In this document: positions 1,487-27,515 of the stretch, piece by piece | Layout: each line of letters starts with the position of its first letter | Position numbering within the stretch: position 1 is the first letter of the stretch | From: Bacilli bacterium | GTDB taxonomy: Bacteria > Bacillota_I > Bacilli_A > ML615J-28 > CAG-698 | NCBI GenBank assembly: GCA_918272565.1 | Contig: CAKJYW010000012.1 | Span: 12,162-76,161 of the forward strand | Direction: 5' to 3' | DNA length: 64,000 nucleotides | Notes under the pieces: generated by a model | The model's input: only the letters and a program-made list of their open reading frames with translations | Database searches by the model: none | Told to the model about the DNA's origin: nothing | Program-made: the position numbers and the translations under genes

Positions 1487-1515
1487 TTTATATAAAGATA
1501 ATAGAGGAAACATTA

Positions 1516-2475
1516 ATGGCAAATAATGGATATAATATAATGAAATTAAATGACGAAACTATTAAATCAATGATTTATGTTGTACGTGGTCAAAAGGTTA
1601 TGCTAGATTTTGAGTTGGCTAAAATATATGGATATGAAACTAGATATTTTAATAGGCAAGTTAATAATAATAATGACAGGTTTCCAAGTGAATTTAGGTT
1701 TCAACTTACAAAGAAAGAGGTAGAGGAATTGGTGAGGTGCAAAAATTTCACCTCACGAAGTTGGGAACATTCCAATGAAGGTGGAAGAAGATATCTTCCA
1801 TATGCATTTACTGAGCAAGGAATTTATATGCTGATGACTGTATTAAAGGGAGACTTAGCCGTGAGGCAAAGTATAGCTTTAATTAAGGCTTTCAAGCAAA
1901 TGAAGGATTACTTAATTGAAAACAAAGGTTTGTTAACTACTGATGAGACAATAAAATTAGCTAATCTTGTTAATGAACACTCAAATAGACTTGATAAAAT
2001 TGAAGAGAAACTTGAAGTTGTAATGGATAGTTTTGATGATCCATCTAAGTATAAACATTATTTAATTAGAAATGGCGAGAAGTTAGAAGCAGATGTTGCT
2101 TATCAAGAAATCTATAAGTTAGCAAAAAAATCTATCTATATTATTGATGATTATATAAATGTTAAAACATTACAATTATTAAAAGTTTGTAATTCAAATA
2201 TTAATATCATTATAATTAGTGATAATAAAGCTAGAAATAATATTAATAATAATTATTTAGATGATTTTAAACATGATATGGGATTTGATATAAAAATAAA
2301 ACAAAACAATAATAAATTTCATGATCGATATATTATTATAGATTATAATACTGATGATTACAAAATATTTCATTGTGGTGCATCGAGTAAAGATTCAGGT
2401 AAAAGTATTAATACAATAATTGAAATAAAAGAAAAAGAATTGTATATCCCACTAGTTGAAAAAGTATTAAGATGA
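1516..2475 (+). CDS. ORF6N (KilA-N-like) domain protein with Asn-rich C-terminal extension
   Basis: N-terminal VRGQKVMLDFELAKIYGYETRYFNRQVNNNNDRFPSEFRFQLTKKE matches the ORF6N domain signature (IRGQKVMLDxDLAxLYGVETKxLNxxVKRNxERFPxDFMFQLT). C-terminal 120 aa are N/I-rich and contain HDRYIIID...GASS. Confidence 0.6.
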   Translation: MANNGYNIMKLNDETIKSMIYVVRGQKVMLDFELAKIYGYETRYFNRQVNNNNDRFPSEFRFQLTKKEVEELVRCKNFTSRSWEHSNEGGRRYLPYAFTEQGIYMLMTVLKGDLAVRQSIALIKAFKQMKDYLIENKGLLTTDETIKLANLVNEHSNRLDKIEEKLEVVMDSFDDPSKYKHYLIRNGEKLEADVAYQEIYKLAKKSIYIIDDYINVKTLQLLKVCNSNINIIIISDNKARNNINNNYLDDFKHDMGFDIKIKQNNNKFHDRYIIIDYNTDDYKIFHCGASSKDSGKSINTIIEIKEKELYIPLVEKVLR

Positions 2476-2610
2476 TTTTCTTTACTGTTTTGTATTGAAA
2501 AAGGCGCAATGTTAGTGATTCTCAGTTTGGTTTAGCAAGAGTCATCAAATGCGTTATGGATTAATATTAGATAATAGTTCATAATATTGGTGTAAAGGAG
2601 AGTTATTTGT

Positions 2611-3630
2611 ATGAATATTGGGTTAATAATTAGAAAACTAAGAGTTAGTAAAAAAATGTCACAAGAAGAATTAGCGGTTCAGTTAGGAGTTTCACCTCAA
2701 GCAGTTTCTAGATGGGAGAATGGAGTTACTTATCCAGATATTTCATTGTTATCTAGTATTGCCCTATTGTTTAATGTCACTATTGATTATTTATTATGTG
2801 GTGATGAGAATCTAATTAATAAGCAAATTGATGAAGCTATAGAAGAAGCAGATAAAGTACTTAAAGATAGTAATCATACTGATTATCTAAAACCACTAGA
2901 GATTGTAAGGGAGTTATTGGCGAAATATCCTAATAATGAAAGATTGATTATTGAAACTTTGCATAGAATAACTCAATATGCTAACGAAATAGAAGGCTAT
3001 GATTATTCAGCAGCAATTAAGTTATGTGAAAGAATTCTTAACATTTCTAAAGATGATGTTTATAGAGAAGAAGCAAAGATAATCATGCTTGATTGCTATG
3101 TAAAAGTAGGATTGATAGAAAAAGCTATAGAGGTAATGGATTCTATTCCAGCTACACTAAATCGCTACCAATTAAAAATGAGAATATTTGGTGAAAAGAC
3201 ACCAGAGTTTAAGGAAGCAAACAAAAAGAATACAGGACATTTATTACTACAGCTTATAGACTCGCTTTTGTCTGAAATTCAATATAATATTGATAATTCA
3301 TCAGAAGAGGAATTAATGAGTAAGTTAATTAATCTTTTAAAAATATATGAAGGTGTATATGGTGATGAGTGGATTGATTCTAAGTATTCTATCGATGCAA
3401 GTCATATTTATATAAAGATAATACAAAAGTGTATTAGAGTCGGTAATTTAGAGAAGGCGTTTGAATATTTTGAAAAGTTAGTTAATTATATTATTTCTTA
3501 TGATAAAAAAAATCCAGAACTTTATAGAAAAAAATATATAAAGAATTTATTTAAATCGAACAAGTTTTATTTAAAGTTGGAAGAATTTAATAGTGATAAG
3601 TATAATGAACTAATGAAAATGTTAGAGTAG
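2611..3630 (+). CDS. XRE-HTH transcriptional regulator with C-terminal TPR-like (RNPP/Rgg-type) domain
   Basis: N-terminal IRKLRVSKKMSQEELAVQLGVSPQAVSRWENG HTH; about 270 aa helical-repeat C-terminus typical of peptide-sensing RNPP regulators. Confidence 0.65.
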   Translation: MNIGLIIRKLRVSKKMSQEELAVQLGVSPQAVSRWENGVTYPDISLLSSIALLFNVTIDYLLCGDENLINKQIDEAIEEADKVLKDSNHTDYLKPLEIVRELLAKYPNNERLIIETLHRITQYANEIEGYDYSAAIKLCERILNISKDDVYREEAKIIMLDCYVKVGLIEKAIEVMDSIPATLNRYQLKMRIFGEKTPEFKEANKKNTGHLLLQLIDSLLSEIQYNIDNSSEEELMSKLINLLKIYEGVYGDEWIDSKYSIDASHIYIKIIQKCIRVGNLEKAFEYFEKLVNYIISYDKKNPELYRKKYIKNLFKSNKFYLKLEEFNSDKYNELMKMLE

Positions 3631-3702
3631 AAAGTGTACTTACATAGTTAGGTGTACACATTTGTATCCTTATTGGACACACAACACATATTGAAACAAT
3701 AG

Positions 3703-3731
3703 GACTGATACAAAAAGTATTGGTCCTTTTT
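3703..3731 (+). terminator. rho-independent terminator
   Basis: AGGAC-(17 nt)-GTCCT hairpin followed by TTTTT. Confidence 0.55.
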
Positions 3732-3923
3732 GCTTTAATTGGAAATTATTATTCATGAAGCATCATAAATGCTATAATAGTGCTGCTTTTTTTAAATTAT
3801 CGTTAGATCCTATTGGACACTTTGGTTATAAAAATAAAAAGTGTCCAGTATGGCTAGACAAAATTATTGATTTTTTGAAAACTGTATAGTATAATATAAG
3901 CAGATGAACATGGAGGTGACTTT

Positions 3924-5105
3924 ATGATTATTAGAGAAAAATACTTAAAAGTTATTAGAGAATTTTATGATAGCGATTTGATTAAGGTAATAACAGGCAT
4001 CAGAAGAAGTGGAAAATCTGTTATTTTAGAAACAATAATAAATGAGATAAAAGAAAAAACTGATAATATTATTTTTCTTAATTTTGAGAAAACAACTGAT
4101 TTTGCAAAAGCAAGTAGTGCTAAAGAGTTAGTTGATTATGTAAAGAAAAATAGAAAAGATGGGAAATGTTATTGTTTCTTTGATGAGATTCAAGATATTG
4201 ATGATTGGCAAGTCGCAGTAAAAGATTTAAGACTAGATAATTGCTCAGTCTTTATCACTGGGTCAAACTCTAAATTGTTATCGAGTGAGTTTTTAGTCTT
4301 GCTTAGCGGACGTTTCGTTTCATTTAGGATTAGACCTTTTATCTTTAAAGAAATTAAAAAATATGCAAGCGAATTAGGAATAGATATAAATGTTACTGAT
4401 TATTTAATATGGGGTGGATTTCCAGGAAGATTTAATAATGTAACTTTAGAAGGAACTAAAGCATACTTATCTGATTTAGAAAGTACAATTGTTGTTAATG
4501 ACTTAATTAAAAGGTACAAGATTAGAAAGGAAGTAGCATTTAAGAAAATAGTAAATTATATTTTGTGCAGTAATTCTAGAATTTTCTCTATTAGATCAAT
4601 TCATAAATATATGAAAAATGATTTTCCTGAATTATCAATAATGACAGTCACAAAATTTATAGAATACTTGAAGGAAGCATATATTATTGATGAAATCCCT
4701 CAGTATTCAACTAAAACAAAAAGAGAACTTCAATATTATGGAAAAATATATAATTCAGATGTATGTTTCAATTCATTAAGAGCAAACAACAATAGATATG
4801 ACTTAGATCATAATTTAGAAAACGTTGTTTATAATGAACTTCTATATATGGGGTATGAATTAAAAGTATTTAATAATAAAGGGAAAGAGATTGATTTTTT
4901 AGCAAATAAAAACGGAAAAACTTATTTAATCCAAGTCGCATATAGTGTTGTTGATGAAAAAGCTTATGACAGAGAATTTGGTGCATTTGCCGATTTAGAT
5001 AATAGTAATCAAAAAATATTAATAACAAATGATGTTGTAGATTACTCATCATCGACTGTAAGGCATATAAAATTAGAAGATTTCCTAATGCTAGAGGAAC
5101 TATAA
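3924..5105 (+). CDS. AAA-family ATPase with C-terminal DUF4143 domain
   Basis: Walker A GIRRSGKS, Walker B CFFDEIQ; C-terminal region with the DUF4143-type pattern (IDFL...IQVAYS...DREF). Confidence 0.8.
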   Translation: MIIREKYLKVIREFYDSDLIKVITGIRRSGKSVILETIINEIKEKTDNIIFLNFEKTTDFAKASSAKELVDYVKKNRKDGKCYCFFDEIQDIDDWQVAVKDLRLDNCSVFITGSNSKLLSSEFLVLLSGRFVSFRIRPFIFKEIKKYASELGIDINVTDYLIWGGFPGRFNNVTLEGTKAYLSDLESTIVVNDLIKRYKIRKEVAFKKIVNYILCSNSRIFSIRSIHKYMKNDFPELSIMTVTKFIEYLKEAYIIDEIPQYSTKTKRELQYYGKIYNSDVCFNSLRANNNRYDLDHNLENVVYNELLYMGYELKVFNNKGKEIDFLANKNGKTYLIQVAYSVVDEKAYDREFGAFADLDNSNQKILITNDVVDYSSSTVRHIKLEDFLMLEEL

Positions 5106-5185
5106 AAGAAAGTAAAATCGATTAGATTTGCAAATAAGGAAGGTTTATAAGGTAATTATATTTACATTATTTTAGGAGAAATAAT

Positions 5186-5974
5186 ATGAACTATATTGAA
5201 GAATTTTACAATAATATAGATGAAGAAAATAGACTAATGTCTTTACATGGACAGGTTGAGTATCTAACAACAATGAAATACATTCATGAATGTATTTCAT
5301 GTCTTAAAGATCCTAAGATACTAGAAGTAGGTGCAGGTACTGGTAGATACTGCATTAATCTTTCAAAGGATGGATATTCAGTTACAGCTGTTGAGTTAGT
5401 AAAGCATAATTTAGATATTTTAAGATCAAAGCTTGATGGTAGTGAACCAATTAAAGCTTTACAAGGTAATGCTTTAGATTTAAATATGTTACCAGATAAA
5501 TCATTTGATATCACAATGCTTTTAGGTCCGATGTATCATCTTTATACAATAGAAGATAAAATACAAGCTTTATCAGAAGCAGTACGTGTTACTAAGCCTG
5601 GTGGTTATATTTTAGTTGCTTATTGTATGAATGAACCAACAATCATTCAGCATGTATTTTTAGGTAATCATCTTAAAGATATTATGGAAACTAATAATTT
5701 ACTAACTGATGATTGGCATTGTAAGAGTGAACCAAAAGAAGTATTTGATCTTGTAAGAATAGAAGATATAGAACAACTTAATTCTAAGTTTCCTATAGAG
5801 AGAATAAAACTTATCGCTACCGATGGTGCAAGTCATTATATAAGAGATGCTATAGATAAAATGGATGAATATACTTTTAGTAAGTGGATGGAGTATCACT
5901 TTGCAACATGTGAGCGTCAAGATTTGATTGGAGCATCCAATCATACTTTAGATATTTTAAAAGTTAAAAAATAA
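5186..5974 (+). CDS. class I SAM-dependent methyltransferase
   Basis: Motif I ILEVGAGTGRY, acidic motif II TAVEL, motif post-I/III DITMLL...GGYILVAY. Confidence 0.75.
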   Translation: MNYIEEFYNNIDEENRLMSLHGQVEYLTTMKYIHECISCLKDPKILEVGAGTGRYCINLSKDGYSVTAVELVKHNLDILRSKLDGSEPIKALQGNALDLNMLPDKSFDITMLLGPMYHLYTIEDKIQALSEAVRVTKPGGYILVAYCMNEPTIIQHVFLGNHLKDIMETNNLLTDDWHCKSEPKEVFDLVRIEDIEQLNSKFPIERIKLIATDGASHYIRDAIDKMDEYTFSKWMEYHFATCERQDLIGASNHTLDILKVKK

Positions 5975-6307
5975 AATCCTACATATTGATGGTTGTATTA
6001 TAATAGTATAAGCGACACATATAAAAATAATTGCATTGATACTATAGCAAATGTTATTTGCTTTTGTATCAGTGCATTTTTTAATGATTTAGGGCATTTT
6101 TACCCTATTTTTTTGTTATTTAGAGATTATGTTAAAAGTCAAATTATAAGAAAATGTGTCCTAAATGTGAAAACCAAATACTTTTTTTCTTAAGGGCTAT
6201 TTAAAAGCTTTCTCAATAGGTTTCTTTATATAGACAAAATTATAGACATTTATCTGGACAAAAATGTTTTATTGTGATATAATATAAATAGATTGGAGGT
6301 CTATAAA

Positions 6308-7633
6308 ATGAAAATTGGAGAGGAAAATGAAATTCTTGAATTTAAAAAAACAACTGGGGAATTGAAAGATGCAATGGATGATATCAGTGCATTATTAAAC
6401 AAGCATTGTAAAGGAACTGTATATTTTGGAGTTACTGATGAAGGAATAGTTAAAGGACAACAAATTACTGATTCTACAAAAAAAGATGTATCTAGAAAGA
6501 TTAACGAAGCTATAGAACCAAGAATCACGCCAACAATAGAAAAAATAGTGCTAGATAACAAAGATGTTATAAAAGTAACTTTTTATGGACACAATAGACC
6601 TTATTCGTCTTATGGAAAGTATTGGATCAGAGAAGGCAGCGTAAGTAGAAAAATGTCGCCAGATGAATTGAAAAGATTAATTAAAAACGAAGATTATTCA
6701 TCTAAGTGGGAACAAGAATTAACTGATAAGACTATAAATGATATTGATAATGAGACATTACTTGATTTCTATAATTCTTCAAAAGCGTGTGGAAGATTAG
6801 AGATGAAAGAATATGATAAAGAAAAATTACTTGCTATGTTGGGTGTTATTAAAGAAGGGAAAATAAATAATGCTGGATATACTTTATTTGGTAGTGATGC
6901 AAAGATAGGATTAAAACTCGCTACATACGCCACTGACAATAAGGTCACTTTCTTAGATTTGAAATTAATTAATGGCAATGTATATAATCTTGTCGGTGTA
7001 GCACTAGACTACATATTAAGCAAGATTAATTGGAGAGTAGAAATTGGATCTAGAAAAAGAGATGAAATTCCTGAAATACCAGAAAAAGCTATAAGAGAAA
7101 TAATAGTGAATGCATTTGCTCATGCAGATTATGATGTAGTTCCAGAAATAGAAATAGGCATTCATCCTAACAAAATAGAGATTTATAATCCTGGAACTTT
7201 CCCAGATGATTTAACACCATACGACTTTATTTCAAAAAATCTTTCTTCATATAAGCGTAATAGACTCATTCTAGATATTTTATTTAGAAGTAAAGATGTT
7301 GAAAAATCAGGAACTGGATTTCAGAGAGTAAACGAATTGTGCCTTAAACAAAATGTATCATGGACATTCAGAAAAGAAGCATATGGTTTTTTCTTTGAAT
7401 TTATCAGGACAAATGTCCACTTAAATGTCCAAATAAACGTCCATTTAACTGAACAGGAACAAAGAATATTTAATTTAATAGATAGTAATGATAGAATTAC
7501 TAAAGAAGAATTGGCTGTAAGAATTAATAAATCAGAAAAAACTGTTCAAAGAATTATCTCAAAACTTATTTCATATAATTTTATCGAACGAGTTGGATCT
7601 AATAAGGATGGTTATTGGAAGGTAAAAGAATAA
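6308..7633 (+). CDS. AlbA_2 (Schlafen-like divergent AAA) domain protein with C-terminal winged-HTH (RecG-C-like) domain
   Basis: N-terminal ENEILEFKK...GTVYFGVTDEGIVKG is typical of the AlbA_2 / putative DNA-binding domain; C-terminal TKEELAVRINKSEKTVQRIISKL HTH. ATG at 6308 with GGAGG 8 nt upstream is preferred over the TTG at 6293. Confidence 0.7.
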   Translation: MKIGEENEILEFKKTTGELKDAMDDISALLNKHCKGTVYFGVTDEGIVKGQQITDSTKKDVSRKINEAIEPRITPTIEKIVLDNKDVIKVTFYGHNRPYSSYGKYWIREGSVSRKMSPDELKRLIKNEDYSSKWEQELTDKTINDIDNETLLDFYNSSKACGRLEMKEYDKEKLLAMLGVIKEGKINNAGYTLFGSDAKIGLKLATYATDNKVTFLDLKLINGNVYNLVGVALDYILSKINWRVEIGSRKRDEIPEIPEKAIREIIVNAFAHADYDVVPEIEIGIHPNKIEIYNPGTFPDDLTPYDFISKNLSSYKRNRLILDILFRSKDVEKSGTGFQRVNELCLKQNVSWTFRKEAYGFFFEFIRTNVHLNVQINVHLTEQEQRIFNLIDSNDRITKEELAVRINKSEKTVQRIISKLISYNFIERVGSNKDGYWKVKE

Positions 7634-7769
7634 AGATGTCTTTATTATTATTTATTGATGTAACTACGTTGATGTAGTTTTAATAATTTGTATTATAGAT
7701 AATATCTCAAAGGGATAAAAACTTTTATATTAAGTAATTGTTTATAAAGAATTATGGTGAGGTGAAAAA

Positions 7770-8246
7770 ATGTCAAAAAAAGATGTAATAATTGATTACT
7801 GCAGATATATAAAAGATTCATTTCTTCTATTCACTATTGAAAACTATTTTTCTTCATTTGTAGATAAAAATAGTAATCCTAAATACTATTTTAGAGATAA
7901 TGGAGTTTTAAATTTATTTATTGATGGTAAAAAGACCTCATTATTAGAAAATATTGTTGCAATACATTTATATAGACGTAATTATGAAATGTATTATTTG
8001 AAAGGGAATAAAGTAGATATTGATTTCTATATTCCAGATGATAATACATTAATTCAAGTGGCTTATTCATTAGACGATCAAGATACATATGATAGAGAAG
8101 TATCAAATATGATTAATTATGCCAATGATTCGAAAAAGGAAATGAAACTAATCACAGTTACTTATGATGAAAAGAATACAATCGAAATTGATGGAAAACT
8201 AATTAATGTTATTACGTTAAAGGATTTCTTATTTAATAATTATTAA
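7770..8246 (+). CDS. DUF4143 domain protein (N-terminally truncated paralog of the AAA/DUF4143 ATPase; possible gene remnant)
   Basis: Residues KYYFRDNGVLN...VDIDFYIPDDNTLIQVAYSLDDQDTYDREV align with the C-terminal KIYNSDVCFN...EIDFLANKNGKTYLIQVAYSVVDEKAYDREF of the 3924-5105 product. No P-loop domain is present. Confidence 0.5.
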   Translation: MSKKDVIIDYCRYIKDSFLLFTIENYFSSFVDKNSNPKYYFRDNGVLNLFIDGKKTSLLENIVAIHLYRRNYEMYYLKGNKVDIDFYIPDDNTLIQVAYSLDDQDTYDREVSNMINYANDSKKEMKLITVTYDEKNTIEIDGKLINVITLKDFLFNNY

Positions 8247-8764: not shown

Positions 8765-9052
8765 ATGGCAAGTTCAAAAGATTATTTAGATTATGTTTTG
8801 GATCTATTAACTAATGTTAACGACATAACTTTCAAAAAGATGATGGGTGAATATCTCCTTTATAAAGATGATATTTTGTTTGGTGGGGTCTATGATAATA
8901 GGTTCTTAGTCAAAAAGACTCCTAGTTTATCTAGTTATGACTTATTAGAAGAAACACCTTATAAGGGCGCAAAGCCAATGTATTTAATAGATAGTGAGAA
9001 TAGAGAATTAATAAAAGAGATTGTTGAAAGAGTAGTTAAGGATTTATCATGA
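8765..9052 (+). CDS. TfoX N-terminal domain protein
   Basis: 95 aa; the FKKMMGEYLLYKDDILFGGVYDNRFLVK pattern resembles the TfoX/Sxy N-terminal domain. Confidence 0.55.
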   Translation: MASSKDYLDYVLDLLTNVNDITFKKMMGEYLLYKDDILFGGVYDNRFLVKKTPSLSSYDLLEETPYKGAKPMYLIDSENRELIKEIVERVVKDLS

Positions 9053-9544
9053 ATAAAGTCATCATATTGGGTGCTAGTGGCGTAGGAAAGAGCTATTTTT
9101 CTAAAAGGTTAGCTAGTTTAACAAATCTTCCTTTGTTTCACTTAGATAATATTTGGTGGAAGGAAGATAAAACTCATATTGAAAGAAGCGAGTTTGACGA
9201 AAAACTAGATGAGATTTTAAATAAAGATAAATGGATAATTGATGGTGATTATTCTAGAACTTATGTAGTTAGAATGGAAAAAGCTGATACTATTATTTTT
9301 CTTGATTTTCCTTTAGAAGAAGCACTTAAAGGTGCAAAGAGAGAGAATAGGAAAACAAAGAAGTGATATACCATGGCAAGAAAGTGAATTTGATCCTGAA
9401 TTTGGAGAGTGGATTGTTAATTGGTATAAAGAAAAAAAGCCTATTCTATTAGAGCAATTAGATAAATATAAGAAAACAAAAGATGTAATTGTTTTTAAAA
9501 CAAGAAAAGAAATAGATGAATATTTTAAAAACTTAAATCTCTAA
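9049..9544 (+). pseudogene. topology-modulation-like P-loop kinase (FlaR/adenylate-kinase-like), split by a +1 frameshift near 9330
   Basis: ORF1 (P-loop GASGVGKS ... LDFPLEEALKG) stops at 9366. ORF2 in the +1 frame (RIGKQRSDIPWQESEFDPEFGEW...) continues the same family to 9544. The two ORFs overlap by 35 nt. Confidence 0.55.
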
Positions 9545-9624: not shown

Positions 9625-9843
9625 ATGAAAAAAGAAACGGAAAACAGGTTTATTGTTAGTGTTAAAGTGGGTCCTAAGGGACAGATTACTATTCCTAGTC
9701 AAGCTAGAAAAATGTTTGATATTAAAGAAGGCGATACTTTAATGGTTATGGGAGATAAGGAAAGAGGCCTTGCACTATTAAAAGATGATGCTTTTTATGA
9801 ACTGATGGGAGGTTTATATAATGATAGCAATAAGAACAAATAA
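9625..9843 (+). CDS. AbrB/MazE/SpoVT-family DNA-binding protein
   Basis: 72 aa; VGPKGQITIPSQARKMFDIKEGDTLMV swapped-hairpin beta-barrel signature; overlaps the downstream ABC ATPase gene. Confidence 0.7.
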   Translation: MKKETENRFIVSVKVGPKGQITIPSQARKMFDIKEGDTLMVMGDKERGLALLKDDAFYELMGGLYNDSNKNK

Positions 9844-10555
9844 TTTAAGAAAAGAATATAAAGATGTTGTGGCAGTGAAGGGACTTAATCTAGAGATCAT
9901 GGAAGGTGAACTTTTCTCTTTACTTGGAGTTAACGGAGCAGGTAAAACCACAACAATCAAAATGTTAGCTACTCTCTCTAAACCTACAAGTGGAGAAGCT
10001 TATATTTATGATTATAATGTTGAAGATGATCAAGATAAAATAAAAGAACTAATTGATATTTCCATGCAAGAAACAGCGATTGCTCGTAAACTTACAGTTG
10101 AAGAAAACATCGAATTTTATGCAAAATTATCAGGTCAAAGTGATGAAGAGATAAAAGAAACTAAAAATTATGTCTATAATGCTTTTGAACTTGATAAAGT
10201 AGCTAAGAAGCAAGCATCAAAGTTATCTGGTGGATGGCAAAGGAAGTTATCTATTGCTCTAGCTTTAGTTACTAAACCTAAGATTTTGTTTTTAGATGAG
10301 CCTACTTTAGGGCTTGATGTAATTGCTAGACGTGAGCTTTGGAAAACAATTAGGGATCTTAAGGACAAGATGACAATAATACTAACAACTCACTATATGG
10401 AAGAAGCAGAAGCTCTTTCTGATAGAATTGGTATTATGAAAGACGGAGAGCTTTTGTTTGTTGGAACAAAGGAAGAATTATATGCTAAAACAAACAAGCA
10501 AAATGTGGAAGAAGCATTTATTAATATTGTTTCTGGAGGTGATTTAGATGAATAA
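9821..10555 (+). CDS. ABC transporter ATP-binding protein
   Basis: Walker A GVNGAGKTT, signature LSGGWQRKL, Walker B ILFLDEPT. Confidence 0.85.
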   Translation: MIAIRTNNLRKEYKDVVAVKGLNLEIMEGELFSLLGVNGAGKTTTIKMLATLSKPTSGEAYIYDYNVEDDQDKIKELIDISMQETAIARKLTVEENIEFYAKLSGQSDEEIKETKNYVYNAFELDKVAKKQASKLSGGWQRKLSIALALVTKPKILFLDEPTLGLDVIARRELWKTIRDLKDKMTIILTTHYMEEAEALSDRIGIMKDGELLFVGTKEELYAKTNKQNVEEAFINIVSGGDLDE

Positions 10556-11300: not shown

Positions 11301-11393
11301 AATTAATAGGGTGAGAAAGCTCTCGAGCTTATAAACACCCTATTTTTTATAATTCCTTTATGATATAATTATTAAAAATAAGGAGAGAAAGAT

Positions 11394-12386
11394 ATGAGAA
11401 AGGTAATAAATATAGTTTCTTTTGTATCTAACTTAATAGTATTACTTATTGAGATATTTGCCTTAGTTTCAATAAGCGTTAGTTTTTCAAAAGCTAACAT
11501 TGTTGAAACAAGCGACTGGTATCAAATTAGTATACATGGCTTTGTTGGGGCTATTTCATTAATGTTTATTATCATTTTGATTGGTTTTGTTGTATTTACT
11601 ATTATTTCTTTAATTAAGCATAATCGTAAATCATCAAAGGGATTAAATATAATAAGCGGAGCACTATTTTTCAATATTTCATTACCTTTTGTTTTTGCAG
11701 GAGGAGACTTGCCTTTCTATTTTGCTTTAGTCTTTGCTTATTCTTTGTGTAATCTTGTACTCCAAATTGTAAGATGTATTGTTTTAAAAAATGATAATGT
11801 CGTTAAATTATATTTATATGATGTAACTAATATGGATGATGATATAAGTGAAGTTCCCCTTGTAACAAGTAGCGATATGAGTGAAGCAAGAAAATACAAA
11901 CAAATAAACGATCAAAAGCTACATATTGCTTCATCCTACCTAAAAAGAAAATACATTAAGGAATATTCAATAAGCGATAGCGGAAAACCTATATCAAAAA
12001 ACTGCTTCTTTAATGTTTCTCATAGTGGATCTTTAGTTATTATGGGAGTGAGTAAGTTAAATGATATAGGAGTAGATACTGAAGTAATCGAAAAGAAGGA
12101 CCTAAATGATTTAATCGACTATGTTTGTTCTAAAGAGGAAAAAGATAGTATCAAAACTACAGAAGACTTTTACAAAGTGTGGGTTTCTAAAGAAAGCCTT
12201 GTGAAGTGTGTTGGTCTTGGAATAAAAAAAGACATGAAAGATGTTTTAGCTTTACCACTTGATGGGGCAAAAGAATATGAAGGTATTAATTATTATAGTC
12301 ATTTAATTGAATATAATGATTATTTCATATCTATTACACTAAAGGGCAAGGAAGATTTTAAGATAGAAATAGAGAAAGAGAGATAA
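11394..12386 (+). CDS. Sfp-type 4'-phosphopantetheinyl transferase fused to an N-terminal ~130-aa four-helix membrane domain
   Basis: C-terminal half carries the PPTase motifs GKPISKNCFFNVSHSG, GVDTE and WVSKESLVKCVG. The N-terminus is strongly hydrophobic (4 TM). Confidence 0.7.
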   Translation: MRKVINIVSFVSNLIVLLIEIFALVSISVSFSKANIVETSDWYQISIHGFVGAISLMFIIILIGFVVFTIISLIKHNRKSSKGLNIISGALFFNISLPFVFAGGDLPFYFALVFAYSLCNLVLQIVRCIVLKNDNVVKLYLYDVTNMDDDISEVPLVTSSDMSEARKYKQINDQKLHIASSYLKRKYIKEYSISDSGKPISKNCFFNVSHSGSLVIMGVSKLNDIGVDTEVIEKKDLNDLIDYVCSKEEKDSIKTTEDFYKVWVSKESLVKCVGLGIKKDMKDVLALPLDGAKEYEGINYYSHLIEYNDYFISITLKGKEDFKIEIEKER

Positions 12387-12388
12387 TT

Positions 12389-13102
12389 ATGGATAAAATA
12401 AGTAAAGATGTAATTGAGTTTTGGAATAATGCTATTAAGCTAGAAGAAGACGATAAAAAAGAAATAGAAAATAGTGGTGATAAAGATTACACCAAACTTG
12501 CTCCATCATTAAAACTATATGAAGCAGTTAAAGAACTTGGAAAGTGCGAGAAAGTTTTAGATTATGGATGTGGCAGTGGATGGAGTAGCATTATTGCTCT
12601 AAAAGAAGGAGCAAAAGAAGTTGATGCAGTTGATATGGGTGATAATATCATCGACGCTATTAATTTCTATGCTAAATATTATGGAGTAGCAAGCAGCCTA
12701 AATGCTAAGAAAATAGATAGTGATTATCTAAAAAGTGTTAAAGATGCAACATATGATGGAATTATTATTAATAATGTTTTAGATGTTATTCCTCTTGATA
12801 TTACTTTAGACATTTTAAATGAAGTTAGTAGAGTAGCAAAAAAAGGAGCAAGAATAATAATTGGCCTAAATTTCTATATGCCGCAAGAGGTCGCAAAAAC
12901 AAGAGGCTTAGAGTTAGTCGATGGTAGGATGCTATTTGTTGATGGAGTTTTAAGGCTATATAGTATGAGTGATAGTGAATGGACGGAATTATTAACAAAA
13001 TATTTTGAAATTGAAAGATTGGACCATTTTGCATGGGAAGGCGAAAGTAGAGAAACTAGAAGGTTATTCGTTTTAAAGAAAACAGTTTCAAGTACTAAAT
13101 AA
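12389..13102 (+). CDS. class I SAM-dependent methyltransferase (PrmA-like)
   Basis: VLDYGCGSGWSSIIALKEGAKEVDAVD motif I / post-I, as in ribosomal protein L11 methyltransferases; start is 3 nt after the PPTase stop. Confidence 0.7.
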   Translation: MDKISKDVIEFWNNAIKLEEDDKKEIENSGDKDYTKLAPSLKLYEAVKELGKCEKVLDYGCGSGWSSIIALKEGAKEVDAVDMGDNIIDAINFYAKYYGVASSLNAKKIDSDYLKSVKDATYDGIIINNVLDVIPLDITLDILNEVSRVAKKGARIIIGLNFYMPQEVAKTRGLELVDGRMLFVDGVLRLYSMSDSEWTELLTKYFEIERLDHFAWEGESRETRRLFVLKKTVSSTK

Positions 13103-13142
13103 AAAATAAAGTGGTATAATAGCCTTCAGACGAGGTGAATTT

Positions 13143-13949
13143 ATGAAAAAATTAATAATTTTTATAGTAGGTGTTTTTATGTTATTTACATTCAGTGGAT
13201 GTACTTCATATATTTCAGTTGGTAAATATAGTGATAGTGATAAATATTTAGTTGGTAATCAAGAATATAGTGGAGATTTAGTTGAACTAGATATCGACTG
13301 GGTTAGTGGAACTGTTAGGCTTATTGAAGATAGTAGTGCTAATGCAATTACATTAGCTGAAGAGACTGATTATGAAGCAGAAGAACTAAAGGTTCGTTCT
13401 TTATTTGAAGATGGTAAGTTACTAATTAAGTTTGGTGAATCTGGTTATCGAGGAAAAGTTGGATTTGGGCAAAGAAAAGAACTAGAAATTAGATATAAGG
13501 ATGTATCCAAAATCAAAGTACACCTAACAAGTGGAAGTTTGAAAGCAGAAAGTGTAACATGTGATGTTATAGATTTAGATATGACTAGTGGGGAAGTAGT
13601 TATTAGTAAATTATCATGCGATAGTGCAGAAATCGATTTAACAAGCGGAAGTGTAAAAATTGATGAACTTGTTTGTAATAACCTAGACTGTGATATGACT
13701 TCAGGAAAATGTGTTATAAGTGTTAAGACCTTAAAAGAAGGTTCATTTGATATGACTAGTGGAAGAGTAACACTTACAATTCCTTCTACCTTCGCTACAT
13801 TAGTTAAGTTCGCTAAGACTACAGGACGCTTAAAAACTGATAAGACTTTCACTAGAGTAGGAAACGAATACACATTTGGTGAACTTGGTAGTGAAGTAGA
13901 AAGTAACATAAAAGTTAATATTACTTCAGGAACATTTGAAATTAAATAA
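13143..13949 (+). CDS. DUF4097-family (LiaF-C-like beta-strand repeat) lipoprotein
   Basis: Signal peptide with lipobox FTFSGC; repeated TSG(S/E)V...I beta-strand units. Confidence 0.7.
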   Translation: MKKLIIFIVGVFMLFTFSGCTSYISVGKYSDSDKYLVGNQEYSGDLVELDIDWVSGTVRLIEDSSANAITLAEETDYEAEELKVRSLFEDGKLLIKFGESGYRGKVGFGQRKELEIRYKDVSKIKVHLTSGSLKAESVTCDVIDLDMTSGEVVISKLSCDSAEIDLTSGSVKIDELVCNNLDCDMTSGKCVISVKTLKEGSFDMTSGRVTLTIPSTFATLVKFAKTTGRLKTDKTFTRVGNEYTFGELGSEVESNIKVNITSGTFEIK

Positions 13950-13950
13950 A

Positions 13951-13980
13951 AATATGCCTCATATAGAGGCATTTTTTTAT
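13951..13980 (+). terminator. rho-independent terminator
   Basis: ATGCCTC-ATAT-AGAGGCAT followed by TTTTTTT. Confidence 0.75.
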
Positions 13981-14027
13981 TGTTAATTAAGGCTATTTAT
14001 TATAAAATAAATAATGTGGAGAGAATT

Positions 14028-15836
14028 ATGGATAAAAAGAAAAAAGTTAGTTTAATTATTTATTGTGTTATATTTACAATCATTAGTTTGTTATTAATGT
14101 TTTATTTGGACTTAGCTAATGGACCAATGTATTTGGTGTTTTTGGAAGTTGTTTTGCTTGGAGCAGCTTTATTCTATAGAATAATGATGAGAAAAGAAAG
14201 ATTCGGTGTTAGGATTTTAAGTATGGTGTTAATCATACTTATCAATATTCCTATTATTTATTTAGCTCATCCAAAGGTAGAGACTTTTATGCCAGAAGCA
14301 AAAATTGAAAAAACTGAAGCCTTGCATTTAGCAAATGGGGATATTGTTGGTACATATAATGAGGATAAGACTGTTAGAGTTTATGCTGGTATCCCTTACG
14401 CTCAGGCGCCTATTGGTAATCTAAGATTCAAAGAACCAGTTGATGTTAATAACTGGAGTGGAGTGCTTGATTGCACTAAATTTGCTCCTCGTGCTATGCA
14501 AAATGATACTTCTTCAGTAATAAATAGTGCAATTGATTTATATGCTATGGGTGGATGGCATCCAAACTACAAAATGGTTCCTTTACAAGATATGAGTGAA
14601 GACTGTTTGTATTTAAATATTTGGCGTCCTAACACAAGTGAAGAGAATCTGCCAATACTTGTTTACATCCATGGTGGATCTTTAACAACAGGGTCAAGTG
14701 CTTTTACTGATTATAGTGGTGAGACATATGCTAAAAATGGTGTAATAATGATTACTATATCTTATCGTCTTGGTGTGTTTGGTTATTTTGCTCATCCAAG
14801 TTTGATAGAAGAGTCTCCTAATAACACTACCGGTAATTATGGTCTACTTGACCAAATTAAAGCGTTAGAATGGATTAATAAAAACGCTAGTTATTTTGGT
14901 GGTGATAAGAATAATATTACGATTGCGGGGGAATCAGCTGGAAGTAGTTCAGTTTCAGCTATTTGCTCTTCACCTTTAGCAAAAGGTTTATTCCAAAAAG
15001 CAATCGGTGAATCATCCTCACTTGTAGTATCTACGCCACCTCATACTTATCGCACACTTGATAGTGCAATTAGAACTGGTGAAGCCATTATGCAAGAATT
15101 TGGCTGTTCAACAATCGATGAGTTAAGGCAAGTTAAAGCGAGTGATTTAGTTAAAACTGCGTATTCTAATTCATCTATGACTTTAGATGGATATGCTTTA
15201 GCTAAAAATCCATATGATGTATATAAAGACAAAGAAAATAACGAAATAGCTCTACTCAACGGATATAACGTTCTAGAAGCAGATGCTTTCGTTGTTCCAA
15301 CATTCCTTCTTTCTCCAACAAACTCATCCAACATTAAAGAGCGCCTAACTGCTTATTTTGATAGTGAAACAGCGGATAAGATTTATGATTTATATAAAGA
15401 TAGAATAGAAGAAGATGCATTTACTGCTTTTAATGAAATAATATCTGTATATTGGTTTATTGAGCCTCATCACTCTTGGAGTAATATGGCATATAATACT
15501 GGAGAAGATGTTTATAGATATCAATTTACTAAAGATAATGGATATTATGGAACATATCATAGTGGGGAATTAATCTACGCTTATGGTAATTTAGATAAGT
15601 CACTTCATAAGAGTGCTTATAACGAAAGCGATTATAAATTGCAAGACATTATGGTTAAATATTTCACTAACTTCATTAAAACAGGAGATCCTAATGGAGA
15701 AGGTCTTCCAAGATGGGAAAAATACACTCCAGGTGGAAGCGTTATGGAATTAGGAGATAATGTAGGTATGATTAAAGATAAATATTTAGACCTTTATCCT
15801 ATTATTGAAGAGTTTATTGAAAAGAACAAAAATTAA
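14028..15836 (+). CDS. carboxylesterase type B family protein with N-terminal membrane anchor
   Basis: GESAGS nucleophile elbow, oxyanion hole HGGS, EDCLYLNIW motif; three N-terminal TM helices. ATG 14028 with a GTGGAG RBS is preferred over the ORF-track start. Confidence 0.85.
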   Translation: MDKKKKVSLIIYCVIFTIISLLLMFYLDLANGPMYLVFLEVVLLGAALFYRIMMRKERFGVRILSMVLIILINIPIIYLAHPKVETFMPEAKIEKTEALHLANGDIVGTYNEDKTVRVYAGIPYAQAPIGNLRFKEPVDVNNWSGVLDCTKFAPRAMQNDTSSVINSAIDLYAMGGWHPNYKMVPLQDMSEDCLYLNIWRPNTSEENLPILVYIHGGSLTTGSSAFTDYSGETYAKNGVIMITISYRLGVFGYFAHPSLIEESPNNTTGNYGLLDQIKALEWINKNASYFGGDKNNITIAGESAGSSSVSAICSSPLAKGLFQKAIGESSSLVVSTPPHTYRTLDSAIRTGEAIMQEFGCSTIDELRQVKASDLVKTAYSNSSMTLDGYALAKNPYDVYKDKENNEIALLNGYNVLEADAFVVPTFLLSPTNSSNIKERLTAYFDSETADKIYDLYKDRIEEDAFTAFNEIISVYWFIEPHHSWSNMAYNTGEDVYRYQFTKDNGYYGTYHSGELIYAYGNLDKSLHKSAYNESDYKLQDIMVKYFTNFIKTGDPNGEGLPRWEKYTPGGSVMELGDNVGMIKDKYLDLYPIIEEFIEKNKN

Positions 15837-15961
15837 AAGATAAGCATGGCTAAAATGAAATTAGAAGTATTTCACTATAGTCATGCTCTTTTTTAAATTT
15901 ATCTATCATTTTTAATTGAATAATAGTATTATATATATGATTATAGAAAGGAAGTCTTAAG

Positions 15962-20463: not shown

Positions 20464-20769
20464 ATGGATGCTCAACTAAGAAGAGGCGTTTTAGATGTTT
20501 GTGTTCTTGCCACAATCAAATCTGAGGACTCGTATGGTTATAAAATCATCAAAGACTTAAGACCGATATTAGAACTATCTGAATCAACTCTATATACGAT
20601 ATTAAAAAGACTAGAAGAAGGTAAAATGCTCGTTGTTCGCTCTACTGAGTTTGAAGGTAGGCTTAGGAAATATTATCATATTACTGAGTTAGGTCTAAAG
20701 CGAATAGAGGATTTTAAGAACGAATGGAAGGAATTAATGGGAATTTACTCATTTATTGAGGAGGTTTAA
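20464..20769 (+). CDS. PadR family transcriptional regulator
   Basis: LDVCVLATIKSEDSYGYKI winged-helix signature; 101 aa. Confidence 0.8.
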   Translation: MDAQLRRGVLDVCVLATIKSEDSYGYKIIKDLRPILELSESTLYTILKRLEEGKMLVVRSTEFEGRLRKYYHITELGLKRIEDFKNEWKELMGIYSFIEEV

Positions 20770-20771
20770 TC

Positions 20772-21368
20772 ATGACAAAGGTTGAATTTTTAAATGAATT
20801 AAGAAATAAATTACAAGTTTTGCCTAAAGAAGATCTTGAAAGTAGAATCAGTTTCTATAGTGAAATGATTGATGATAGAATGGATGAAGGTAAGACGGAA
20901 GAAGAAGCAATTAATGAGATTGGAACTGTCGATGAAATAGTTTATGAAATTGCTAAAGATACACCTTTAGTAAAATTAGTTAAAGAAAAGGTTAAACCAA
21001 AGAGAGCTCTAAGAGTTTGGGAGATTATCTTACTTATTTTAGGTTTTCCTGTATGGTTTCCTCTATTTACTGTAGCAATCGTTTTAGCTATCGTTTTCTA
21101 TTTATTAATATGGGTATTTGTAATAGTAGCCTACGCAGTTGAAGCTGCACTTGTTACATGGTCAGTTGGTGGAGTAATAGTCTTTTTCTTATCGCTAATA
21201 AATGGTAACAGCGATTTAATAAGCTTAGGAACAGCTGTAATGGCATGTGGAGGAGCAATCCTACTTTATTTTGGATGCAAAGAATTAACTAAATTAACAA
21301 TAAAATTATCAAAGAAAATAATTGTTGGGATAAAGATGGCAATTATTGGAAAAGGAGAGAATAAATGA
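20772..21368 (+). CDS. DUF1700 domain membrane protein
   Basis: N-terminal FLNELRNKLQVLPKEDLESRISFYSEMIDD (DUF1700) followed by TM helices; conserved partner of PadR. Confidence 0.7.
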   Translation: MTKVEFLNELRNKLQVLPKEDLESRISFYSEMIDDRMDEGKTEEEAINEIGTVDEIVYEIAKDTPLVKLVKEKVKPKRALRVWEIILLILGFPVWFPLFTVAIVLAIVFYLLIWVFVIVAYAVEAALVTWSVGGVIVFFLSLINGNSDLISLGTAVMACGGAILLYFGCKELTKLTIKLSKKIIVGIKMAIIGKGENK

Positions 21369-22297
21369 AAAGAGTATTATTTGTAATTATAGGCCTTGCT
21401 ATTATAATAGCTGGTGGAATATTATTAGGAGTTGGAATAAAGAAGATGGCAAAAACTGAAGTAACAGAAAAAGTGTATGATATCACTGAAGAATTTAATA
21501 ATATTACAGTTGATGTTGATACAACTGACCTTTATTTTAAAAAATCAACTGATGGAAATACTAAGGTTGTTTGTACTGACCTTGATAAATTACACCATGA
21601 GGTAAGTGTTAGTGATGGAACTTTAGTAGTAAAAAGCGTAGATGAAAGACATTGGTATGAGATGATCTTTAATTATAGATCACTAAAGATTACAGTTTAT
21701 TTATCAAATGAAGCGTTTAGTAATTTGAACATTAAATCATCTACAGGAGATATTGAATTTAGTGATGAATTTACTTTTGATAGTGTTAAGATTAAACTTT
21801 CTACTGGAGATGTTGATGCTAAAATAAAGGTAAATAATGAATTTGAGGTTGAAGTTTCTACTGGTAATATTAAATTACATGAGGCAAGTGCTAAAAGCCT
21901 TAAACTAAAGTCTTCAACTGGAAGAATCAATCTAGAAAATGTAGATGTTACTAATGATGTGGATATTACATCATCTACAGGGAAGATTATTCTAACTAAC
22001 TTAAGAAGTGAAAACTTAAGAGCAAGTGCATCTACTGGACACGTTACTTTAAAAGACACTATCATTAATGGAAATATCATTATTAAGACTTCAACAGGTG
22101 ATGTTAAGTTTGATGGTAGTGATGGCATAGAAATCCATGTTTCAACAACAACCGGAGATGTTACAGGAACAATTCTTTCTAGTAAGATTTTCTTTGCAAA
22201 TAGTGATACTGGTAAAATTAATGTTCCACACTTAACTGAAGGTGGAATATGTGAAGTTGAAACTGATACAGGTGACATTATTCTTAATGTAAAATAA
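21365..22297 (+). CDS. DUF4097 family beta-strand repeat protein (putative adhesin / LiaF-like)
   Basis: N-terminal TM helix; repeated STG(D/N/K)I units; paralog of the 13143 product. Confidence 0.75.
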   Translation: MKRVLFVIIGLAIIIAGGILLGVGIKKMAKTEVTEKVYDITEEFNNITVDVDTTDLYFKKSTDGNTKVVCTDLDKLHHEVSVSDGTLVVKSVDERHWYEMIFNYRSLKITVYLSNEAFSNLNIKSSTGDIEFSDEFTFDSVKIKLSTGDVDAKIKVNNEFEVEVSTGNIKLHEASAKSLKLKSSTGRINLENVDVTNDVDITSSTGKIILTNLRSENLRASASTGHVTLKDTIINGNIIIKTSTGDVKFDGSDGIEIHVSTTTGDVTGTILSSKIFFANSDTGKINVPHLTEGGICEVETDTGDIILNVK

Positions 22298-22429
22298 GAA
22301 AAAATATCTGATACTATAATGAATTAAACTTTATTTTAAGGTTTAAGCATTAAGGTGTCAGATTTTTATTTTGCTTTTTAGTTAAAAAAGTGATAAAATA
22401 ATATAGATTTTAAAAAAAGAGTGAACGAA

Positions 22430-23557
22430 ATGGAATTTTTGAATTATTTATTTAACAATATCCCACTATTTTCAATATCGTTTGTGGTGATATTTCTTGC
22501 TATTAGGAACCTACCTATTAGAAAAAGAGAAAGTATTTATTTTATCGTTTTTACTGCTTTAGTAATATATTTAAGTATAGCAATTTATTTAGAAAGATAT
22601 GAAGCGAGTTTAGGGAAAGCTCAACTAGCCACCCTTTTCACAACAAGTGGCTACATCGTTCGTCCTATTCTGCTTTATATTTTCTGCTTGCTTACTAACA
22701 TGGAAAAGAAGAGAAGCAAATATTTCTATATTTTCTGGGCATTGCCTTTAGTTATCAATTTGTTTATTTATTTACTTCCTTTAATGTTTGCATCTAGTGC
22801 TTTATCAAAAGTAGTATTCTATTATGAACTTCAAGCTGATGGAACTGCTCTATTCACTAGAGGTGGCGCACTTAATTTTACTGCACACGTAATAAGCGCT
22901 GCTTATCTATCATTACTAGTTTATGTTTCTACACTTAGATTACACGGAAAACACAGAAGAGATGCTTTCGTTATCTCTCTATGCATTTTCTTTATTGTAG
23001 CTACAGTAGTTGTTGAAGTGATTACTGGTAGAAATGATTTATTAAACATCATTTGTGAAATCTGTGCCTTAGCTAATTACATCTTTATTAATTCTATTAA
23101 CTCAAGTAAAGATATCTTAACAGGTTTATATGATAGAAGAACATTCTATGAAGATGTTAGAAGATACAAAAAGCAAATCAATGGTATTATTCAAATAGAT
23201 ATGAATGGTCTTAAATACTTAAACGACAACTATGGCCATGAAGAAGGAGATAAAGCCTTAAATAGTGTTGCTTATATATTTAGAAGTAGTATTCATAAAG
23301 AGACAATGTTTGCGTATCGTTTAAGTGGCGATGAGTTTGTCATTCTAATGATTCAAGGGGAAAAAGAACATTTTGATAGTTCAATTGAATTAATAAAGAA
23401 GAAAATAAAAGAATCCGATTATTCAATCGCTCTCGGTGACTATTTCATCGAAAAAAATAGTGATATCAGTTTTGAAGAAGCTATGAGAAAATCAGAGCAT
23501 TTGATGTACTTAGATAAACAAAAGTTCTATTTGAGTAAATTAGATCCTCATAGATAA
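22430..23557 (+). CDS. membrane-anchored GGDEF-domain diguanylate cyclase (SGDEF variant)
   Basis: Seven TM segments then a GGDEF domain with A-site RLSGDEF and no RxxD I-site. Confidence 0.75.
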   Translation: MEFLNYLFNNIPLFSISFVVIFLAIRNLPIRKRESIYFIVFTALVIYLSIAIYLERYEASLGKAQLATLFTTSGYIVRPILLYIFCLLTNMEKKRSKYFYIFWALPLVINLFIYLLPLMFASSALSKVVFYYELQADGTALFTRGGALNFTAHVISAAYLSLLVYVSTLRLHGKHRRDAFVISLCIFFIVATVVVEVITGRNDLLNIICEICALANYIFINSINSSKDILTGLYDRRTFYEDVRRYKKQINGIIQIDMNGLKYLNDNYGHEEGDKALNSVAYIFRSSIHKETMFAYRLSGDEFVILMIQGEKEHFDSSIELIKKKIKESDYSIALGDYFIEKNSDISFEEAMRKSEHLMYLDKQKFYLSKLDPHR

Positions 23558-25943: not shown

Positions 25944-26053
25944 AAATATGTAACACTCATTTCTAATTTGGTAATGAGTGTTATTTGATTTTAGGGGCTT
26001 GTTTTGTTATAATTCAAATGTAATATATATTATATATAGAAAGAAGGCTATTT

Positions 26054-27390: not shown

Positions 27391-27436
27391 TTTTAAAAAG
27401 CCCTTTATTTATTTAAAAAAATAAGTTATAATATTA

Positions 27437-27508: not shown

Positions 27509-27515
27509 GATTAGT

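Follow-up and report, generated by a model that had tools for sequence, protein, structure and literature searches.

Does a phosphopantetheinyl transferase (PPTase) that is preceded, in a single reading frame, by four predicted transmembrane (TM) helices point to a dedicated pathway of the cell envelope, or is it an ordinary enzyme that has recently gained a membrane segment? The question is raised by a 330-codon open reading frame (ORF) within a 64-kb stretch of DNA, referred to below as the window, which is chromosomal, has a low GC content (about 30%) and carries nearly every gene on the plus strand. The host appears to be an uncultured, low-GC, Bacilli-like species of the ruminant gut, whose presence is also documented by the NCBI assembly GCA_963426235.1, where contig CAUJZM010000013.1 holds this locus, and by metagenome assemblies of ENA and Logan. 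The answer favored here, with a probability of roughly 0.6, is that the gene encodes a housekeeping Sfp-type PPTase to which a membrane extension under weak constraint was recently added at the N-terminus, and that no dedicated envelope pathway is involved. The coordinates of the features discussed are collected in Table 1.

A membrane module in frame with an Sfp-type PPTase

The fusion ORF is real, and a chance origin of the 132-codon open frame that lies upstream of its PPTase-homologous part is very unlikely. The frame is regarded as coding sequence because stretches of 132 codons were free of stops in only 6 of 200,000 shuffled controls and in none of 20,794 off-frame windows taken from the genes of the 64 kb, and because the N-terminal part, when read in frame 0, uses codons as genes do (0.37 bits per codon, about the value of the ABC-2 permease gene), the score being negative in both other frames. 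A putative extended -10 element and a strong Shine-Dalgarno sequence precede the start codon, are unchanged in six of six strain assemblies, and would serve as the fusion gene's own expression signals.

The initial annotation had described a four-helix hydrophobic N-terminus continuous with a complete Sfp-type PPTase, a description with which the ORF, hydropathy, Pfam and AlphaFold2 analyses all agree. Hydrophobic segments are located at about residues 5-28, 46-74, 84-102 and 107-131, and AlphaFold2 places helices at residues 2-35, 41-76, 82-99 and 107-132 with low to moderate confidence (predicted local distance difference test, pLDDT, 43-64). The N-terminus (+2), loop 2 (+4) and the segment following TM4 are positively charged, while loops 1 and 3 carry a net negative charge; by the positive-inside rule, the four predicted helices would thus adopt an N-in/C-in topology with the enzyme domain in the cytoplasm.

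The catalytic domain, formed by residues 133-330, is a complete Sfp-type (group II) PPTase that retains every invariant residue of the family and would be expected to be active. The Pfam family ACPS (PF01648) is found at residues 225-290 with E 8e-10 and 39.2 bits, above the cut-off of 25, and AASDHPPT_N gives a weak, sub-threshold match on residues 158-217 (17.8 against 27). The motifs GKP (197-199), FNVSHSG (206-212), GVDTE (226-230) and WVSKESLVK (263-271) match the invariant columns of the family, which within them comprise F206, N207, S209, H210, G226, D228, E230, K266, E267, S268 and K271; the last three motifs align with Sfp residues 86-92, 105-109 and 147-155. The residues involved in Mg2+ and coenzyme A (CoA) binding and in catalysis, namely K198-P199, S209-H210, D228, E230, E267 and K271, correspond to K75-P76, S89-H90, D107, E109, E151 and K155 of Sfp, and are invariant across 27 family members.

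Structural comparison leads to the same assignment. In the AlphaFold2 model, built from a 27-sequence alignment, residues 136-329 fold into two lobes with a pLDDT of about 90 or higher. Foldseek returns Sfp (4mrt/1qr0) as the best match of this model (E 2e-13), along with human AASDHPPT and mycobacterial PptT, over 214-246 columns and with E values from 2e-13 to 1e-5; AcpS enzymes match over a single lobe (about 115 columns), at E 6e-3 or worse. A phmmer search of the PDB also places Sfp (1qr0) at the top, aligning residues 188-281 with Sfp 65-165 (E 7e-5). An AcpS-type (group I) identity is ruled out, the catalytic part having about 198 residues in two lobes, versus the single lobe of approximately 120 residues of a trimer-forming AcpS; in addition, Bacillus subtilis AcpS found nothing significant in the window when employed as a phmmer query. 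The NCBIfam equivalogs AusB, HetI and AcpT were rejected as well, with scores far under their cut-offs (53 against 225, 34 against 370, and 31 against 174 bits, respectively).

Table 1. Features of the PPTase locus, with coordinates in the window
Feature	Coordinates	Strand	Basis
AbrB/SpoVT-type gene	9625-9843	+	Pfam/NCBIfam; overlaps the ABC ATPase gene by 23 nt
DrrA-like ABC ATPase gene	9821-10555	+	followed by the ABC-2 permease gene
Species-specific block, about 4.65 kb (fusion, methyltransferase, DUF4097, esterase genes)	11301..15950	+	comparison of strains and sister species
Intrinsic terminator hairpin of the AbrB-ABC-ABC2 operon	11305..11344; U-run 11345-11350	+	RNA folding
Putative extended -10 element (TG-n-TATAAT)	11361-11369; TG 11361-11362, TATAAT 11364-11369	+	sequence reading
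Strong Shine-Dalgarno sequence, AAGGAGAG	11380-11387	+	sequence reading; 8 nt 5' of the ATG at 11394
Fusion ORF, 330 aa (4-TM anchor and Sfp-type PPTase)	11394..12386	+	one continuous frame, 330 codons
Orphan membrane module, residues 1-132, four predicted TM helices	11394..11789	+	hydropathy, loop charges, AlphaFold2
Sfp-type (group II) PPTase domain, residues 133-330	11790..12386	+	alignments, Pfam ACPS, AlphaFold2, Foldseek, phmmer
Codon K138 (AAA; TAA in strain assembly L007)	11805..11807 (L007 2394-2396)	+	strain alignment
Catalytic and CoA-binding motifs	12009..12206; FNVSHSG 12009-12029, GVDTE 12069-12083, WVSKESLVK 12180-12206	+	alignments
Class I S-adenosylmethionine (SAM)-dependent methyltransferase, 237 aa	12389..13102	+	class I SAM motif; starts 2 nt past the PPTase stop
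DUF4097/LiaG-like lipoprotein, signal peptide, lipobox FSGC	13143..13949	+	Pfam DUF4097 E 1e-15; NCBIfam LiaG 76 bits against a cut-off of 285
Terminator-like site	13954-13972	+	3' of the DUF4097 gene
Type-B carboxylesterase, last gene of the block	13980..15836	+	Pfam COesterase on residues 113-595, E 5e-101
Terminator hairpin after the esterase gene	15843-15887	+	dG -18.3 kcal/mol, z -4.4

An orphan anchor on a family of stand-alone enzymes

The anchor is an orphan and is confined to one species. When residues 1-137 were searched with phmmer against 1.84 billion representative proteins, the only sequences returned were a split ORF of the same species and one chance match, P0150 (E 7e-4), which is an SH3/NlpC-P60 protein and was rejected as a relative. 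A Pfam search of the anchor up to E 5 yielded no family at threshold, the matches to DUF4064 (14.3 against 32.1 bits, E 0.048) and Cytochrom_B561 (15.7 against 23) falling short of it. Neither a scan of JGI metagenomes nor a plasmid search provided a relative of the anchor, the matches in the latter beginning at residue 131 or later, and tblastn and blastn comparisons with the window and all fetched loci revealed no anchor paralogue. The DNA of the anchor consists of 44% T, has a GC content of 27%, and codes mainly for isoleucine, leucine, phenylalanine and valine.

The homologues of the catalytic domain, in turn, lack any such segment. All 22 non-self homologue clusters (29-54% identity) consist of stand-alone proteins of 186-213 residues that align to the C-terminal 46-59% of the query, and their N-termini, with the consensus MDxVxLYIxD, align M1-D2 with N133-D134 of the fusion. 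A GTDB-wide scan, whose matches did not include the species' own representative, returned 54 loci, among which the 23 close ones come from rumen and gut metagenome-assembled genomes (MAGs) labelled Bacilli, Acholeplasmatales, Erysipelotrichaceae or Clostridia. In all 23, the stop-to-stop frames measure 199-220 residues, so that no N-terminal extension is possible. Three distant GTDB loci (L040, L043 and L044) display long PPTase ORFs of 371-595 residues, and these were set aside as open-frame artefacts of high-GC DNA with arginine-rich or antisense-like extensions. The question of whether homologues are always fused is thus answered in the negative, and the fusion is as unusual as had been supposed, having no fused counterpart among the clusters and GTDB loci examined. 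A text search of a literature collection found no use of the terms "membrane-bound," "membrane-anchored" or "membrane-associated" PPTase.

The stand-alone enzymes of about 200 residues from rumen and gut Bacilli, Acholeplasmatales and Erysipelotrichaceae-labelled MAGs (P0004, P0002, L010-L032) are 35-54% identical to the domain, share the same invariant residues and, unlike the fusion, have no N-terminal extension; they are encoded by solitary genes that have no carrier protein genes as neighbours. The contexts of the homologues are unrelated to each other, desulfoferrodoxin/MgtC and DUF1846/Big_2 being examples. Queries with carrier seeds and with the genes of the locus, covering about 6-10 kb around 25 homologue loci, detected no acyl carrier protein (ACP), DltC, AcpS, methyltransferase homologue, anchor or DUF4097 gene, and no ABC gene was found within 6 kb of the PPTase at these loci. 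The loci with the closest PPTase (L001/L002, 54%) were considered as a sister genome and rejected, their MetK being just 44% identical to that of the window.

Strain variation and selection

The 90%-identity cluster of the fusion protein comprises six members, five of which have 330 residues and derive from independent NCBI, ENA and Logan assemblies. These fused members (P0001, P0024, P0025, P0027 and P0028) display 94-96% identity to the window protein, P0001 being identical to it; the strain DNAs are many single-nucleotide polymorphisms apart and the frame is kept, while the 94-nt upstream region is identical in six of six. In the sixth assembly, L007 (sample XIEF21, ERZ28653851), a single substitution converts the AAA codon of K138 into TAA, which results in a 137-residue membrane ORF and a 184-residue PPTase called from M147 (11832-11834). 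This stop is derived rather than ancestral, because it lies inside the PPTase-homologous first strand, five codons past the position of the ancestral start.

The two parts of the protein evolve in different ways. Among the six strain sequences, the anchor carries 17 nonsynonymous and 5 synonymous segregating changes, in agreement with a neutral expectation of 309:87 sites (binomial p = 1.0), and its replacements include the radical I27R, V37D, GG103-104PR and A111D. In the PPTase part the corresponding numbers are 20 and 26, nonsynonymous changes being strongly depleted (binomial p = 1e-8), and the ratios of the two parts differ (Fisher p = 0.010). The anchor therefore evolves as if neutral while the PPTase part is under purifying selection, and an orphan, species-restricted anchor with neutral-like evolution argues against an old dedicated function.

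The genes upstream and the sister-species locus

An AbrB-like gene that overlaps a pair of ABC-2 exporter genes does lie upstream, as had been noted; the overlap is of 23 nt, and the permease gene comes next. The operon ends in an intrinsic terminator hairpin (dG -15.9 kcal/mol, z -4.0) for which none of 200 shuffled sequences was as stable, and which is 100% identical in six strain assemblies. The presence of this terminator, together with a separate promoter and Shine-Dalgarno sequence, between the ABC-2 permease and PPTase genes speaks against a shared operon.

Sister-species loci, located with enolase as the marker, provide a second line of evidence. In locus L074, where identities to the window amount to 90% for enolase, 80% for the ABC protein, 69% for ABC-2 and 72% for ECF-S, the gene order is AbrB-ABC-ABC2-ECF-S-gpmI-eno, with a gap of 85 nt (L074 2699-2783) between permease and ECF-S; the 4.65-kb block that holds the fusion gene is absent from this orthologous ABC2/ECF-S junction. 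In L071 and L072 (enolase 84%), a LysR gene is followed by ECF-S-gpmI-eno and the block is also absent, and no block gene was found elsewhere in these three loci. The block is present in every strain of the species under study, and neither repeats nor mobility genes were seen at its borders. More distant enolase relatives that carry names (76-78% identity) belong to "Coprobacillus sp. CAG:698," Acholeplasmataceae and Bacilli MAGs. Since the block is missing in the sister species, it is through insertion or rearrangement, and by accident, that the PPTase gene stands next to the ABC operon.

Neither co-transcription nor a conserved linkage with the PPTase gene is thus found for the AbrB/ABC operon. 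The initial annotation had joined this operon, the PPTase and the methyltransferase into a single envelope modification or export pathway; with a terminator between the genes, a promoter and Shine-Dalgarno sequence of the fusion gene's own, a sister locus (L074) devoid of the block, and a linkage that is not conserved, this proposal is not supported.

The genes downstream

The gene that follows the PPTase encodes a methyltransferase that had been described as being of the PrmA type. The adjacency is genuine, only 2 nt separating the two genes, but the PrmA identity is rejected: Pfam PrmA (ribosomal protein L11 methyltransferase) matches only over profile positions 151-258 of 296, that is, the Rossmann core, so that the full-length architecture with its N-terminal L11-recognition domain is not matched, and the PrmA equivalog TIGR00406 reaches 36.5 bits, far under its cut-off of 183. 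Relatives in the PDB are generic class I methyltransferases, the best being PH0226 (E 4e-5). The family consists of proteins of about 233-237 residues with more than 390 matches, and 114 of the best 120 of these come from other species and display 46-62% identity. In three other species, the methyltransferase gene directly follows DUF6935, SASA esterase or small lipoprotein genes, and in none of the three does it stand beside a PPTase gene.

The DUF4097 lipoprotein gene begins 40 nt beyond the methyltransferase gene and is probably the last gene of the PPTase-methyltransferase transcription unit. Its product is one of two DUF4097 "toastrack" proteins in the window, the other being encoded at 20464-22297 as part of a PadR-HAAS-DUF4097 module, as recognized by Pfam on the same-species locus L069. 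The carboxylesterase that closes the block starts with a stretch of about 100 residues in which there are three hydrophobic segments, and is a second normally soluble enzyme of the block with a multi-helix N-terminus.

The search for a carrier protein

The initial annotation reported that no carrier protein was encoded in the window, and phmmer searches with six seeds lead to the same result. AcpP, AcpA, two DltC sequences, CitD and AcpS were compared with six-frame segments of at least 40 residues, and a motif scan was added; no ACP, DltC, CitD or AcpS-like ORF was found in the six-frame translations of the 64 kb. One DltC match, at 26017-26211 on the minus strand (E 2e-4), is antisense to a membrane-protein ORF and was discarded as being due to chance. 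Since the unfused homologues also lack nearby carrier genes, the absence of such a gene gives no hint of an unusual substrate.

Origin of the fusion and alternative explanations

How could such a protein have arisen? The ancestral ATG of a stand-alone PPTase, now the AAT codon of N133, was probably lost, which would have joined its frame to an upstream open frame that had its own promoter and Shine-Dalgarno sequence, in an event probably tied to the arrival of the 4.65-kb block. How easily such fusions could come about, once a stop or start codon is lost, is shown by the upstream neighbours of stand-alone PPTase genes, which are of many kinds and in many cases extend over the PPTase start. A 4-TM CmpB (PF06541) gene overlaps it by 4 nt in L019 (3969-4604) and L020 (5370-6005), and a 12-TM permease gene does so by 14 nt in L022 (4677-6041); these arrangements are one mutation away from a fusion. 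The CmpB neighbour of L020 was considered as a relative of the anchor and rejected (BLASTP E 0.73).

The source of the anchor could be a fast-diverged gene for a small membrane protein, a possibility for which the sub-threshold DUF4064 match is cited, and a de novo rise from T-rich non-coding DNA is likewise possible. Young N-terminal membrane segments that emerge de novo from T-rich sequence are a concept of the yeast de novo gene literature. The anchor resembles them in its T-rich DNA, its richness in isoleucine, leucine, phenylalanine and valine, its lack of homologues and its near-neutral evolution, and may or may not share their de novo origin.

Under the proposed mechanism, the lineage-specific extension of about 132 residues would be young, and its four helices would tether the catalytic domain to the cytoplasmic face of the membrane. 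The tethered enzyme would employ CoA and Mg2+ to convert an apo-carrier into its holo form, its likeliest substrate being the ordinary ACP of the cell, encoded elsewhere in the genome, along with any other carrier encoded there. The anchor would be tolerated or weakly useful, and the proximity of the AbrB/ABC operon and of the methyltransferase gene would be incidental. The stop-split allele and a natural homologue of 186 residues that starts near M147 suggest that the enzyme can work untethered.

Several points weigh against the reading of a housekeeping enzyme with a recent, weakly constrained extension. The library of 1.84 billion proteins keeps a single representative for each 50%-identity cluster, and the 330-residue fusion itself was not among its matches; the cluster of the fusion is evidently represented by a sequence without an anchor, and distant fused relatives may be masked likewise. 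The nearest PPTase is just 54% identical, there being no intermediate relatives by which to date the event, and the census of PPTase and carrier genes covered no more than the 64-kb window and the 10-kb flanks of the look-ups. The stop in L007 was seen in a single metagenomic assembly, where it might reflect either an error or a minor allele. The radical replacements in the anchor lie mostly in loops or at helix ends, leaving the hydrophobic cores in place, and the within-species sample is small, the 22 variable sites of the anchor implying a wide error on an omega near 1, with which moderate constraint may be compatible. Finally, a frame that is intact in five strains and displays gene-like codon usage also fits an anchor under selection.

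Selection on the anchor is the foremost of the alternatives, although an unlikely one. The anchor would in that case be functional and bring phosphopantetheinylation to the membrane for the benefit of an envelope carrier, such as DltC in the D-alanylation of teichoic acids or an ACP that feeds PlsX/PlsC, possibly in conjunction with the methyltransferase and the lipoprotein. The retention of frame, Shine-Dalgarno sequence and hydrophobic cores in five strains is in keeping with it, as are a predicted topology that places the catalytic domain in the cytoplasm, the 2-nt coupling to the methyltransferase gene with probable co-transcription of the lipoprotein gene, and the occurrence in the window of a PlsC-type acyltransferase (26566-27390, motif NHVSNVDP). 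On the other hand, the anchor is an orphan confined to one species, changes in a neutral-like ratio (17:5) and exists in a variant with a stop codon; no carrier gene is found in 64 kb or within 6 kb of 25 homologues; and the methyltransferase and PPTase genes are unlinked in the other loci examined, the block being absent from the sister species.

A related version, to be held with slightly more reserve still, is that of an adaptive tether: a new or orphan 4-TM anchor, captured upon loss of the start codon, would have given rise to the first naturally membrane-tethered Sfp-type PPTase, with holo-carrier being made at the membrane. If this were true, it would represent a datable, strain-polymorphic domain gain in progress, in which fused and stop-split alleles coexist, and which might serve, for instance, the acylation of phospholipids or cell-surface polymers.

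It is more doubtful that the locus yields two products, namely a soluble PPTase, for which ribosomes would initiate internally or re-initiate at M147 (11832), and an independent small membrane protein, the continuity of the frame being incidental. This is the exact arrangement of L007, where a 137-residue ORF and its stop are followed by a 184-residue PPTase from M147, and the closest homologue (P0004, 54% identical), which naturally has 186 residues, begins just five residues before M147 in the alignment. However, no purine-rich Shine-Dalgarno sequence precedes M147, and in five of the six assemblies there is no separating stop, so that ribosomes starting at 11394 must yield the fusion; moreover, the first beta-strand (136-143), which is well modelled and conserved in most homologues, would be lost.

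An origin of the fusion in faulty assembly or sequencing, through a missing stop or a frameshift as the initial annotation had feared, is excluded for practical purposes. Compared with three other strains, the window does have a neighbouring gene that is broken by a 1-nt indel at about 9340, and L007 has two ORFs; yet the same continuous frame is shared by five independent assemblies that stem from different projects and are many polymorphisms apart, and the L007 stop, located in the PPTase-homologous region, is derived.

Other features of the window

Additional observations were made in the window. The indel just mentioned is a 1-nt insertion in a GA-rich run near 9340, which breaks the gene at 9049-9544 into overlapping ORFs of 105 and 70 residues; the 164-residue gene, with a faint AAA_18 kinase-like match, is intact in L008, L069 and L070, and it is exactly at this short GA tract that the strains differ. 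A transfer-messenger RNA (tmRNA) gene at 481-832 lies directly 3' of smpB (9-458), and ARAGORN predicts for it the tag GNTNFAFAC, which has an unusual C-terminus. Next to it, between smpB/tmRNA and a GNAT gene, is a strain-variable islet (1175-8246, as compared with 2640-6856 in L008/L070) that contains extra helix-turn-helix-type genes, a 446-residue ATPase-like ORF and DUF4143 ATPases. A purine riboswitch (27421-27521) precedes a nucleobase permease-like gene (27685-29196), and a SAM (S-box) riboswitch (34119-34209) precedes metK (34262-35356). Two multi-TM proteins, encoded at 22421-23557 and 24293-25474, display the C-terminal GGDEF-like motifs RLSGDEF and RYGGDEF, as read from the translations alone.

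Comparison with known PPTases and implications

The enzyme with which the domain compares best is B. subtilis Sfp (1QR0, 4MRT), with which it shares the motifs GKP, FN(I/V)SHSG, G(I/V)DxE and WxxKES(F/L)(I/V)K and a two-lobe architecture of about 200 residues. Sfp is soluble, has 224 residues and is encoded beside the surfactin nonribosomal peptide synthetase (NRPS), whereas the fusion carries 132 extra residues with four TM helices, is only about 20% identical to it, and has no NRPS, polyketide synthase or carrier gene nearby. Staphylococcus aureus AusB, cyanobacterial HetI, Escherichia coli AcpT, Bacillus cereus CesP, human AASDHPPT and Mycobacterium tuberculosis PptT belong to the same superfamily and have the same fold; to our knowledge, all six are soluble. 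A precedent for a PPTase within a larger polypeptide is offered by the C-terminal PPT domain of the alpha-subunit of fungal type I fatty-acid synthase (2WAT, 8PS2), which gives a one-lobe fold match (E about 1e-2). That domain is an AcpS-like single lobe joined to the megasynthase that is its own substrate, while here the partner of an Sfp-type enzyme is a membrane anchor, and no substrate is attached.

The chief practical outcome of this analysis is the correction of an over-reading: the AbrB/ABC genes and the "PrmA-like" methyltransferase define no new envelope pathway. PPTases are regarded as soluble, and a case of natural tethering to the membrane would demonstrate that such localization is tolerated by the reaction or is to its advantage. 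Together, the fused alleles, a re-split allele and an unfused sister locus would provide a small and tractable case of the addition of an orphan TM extension to essential enzymes.

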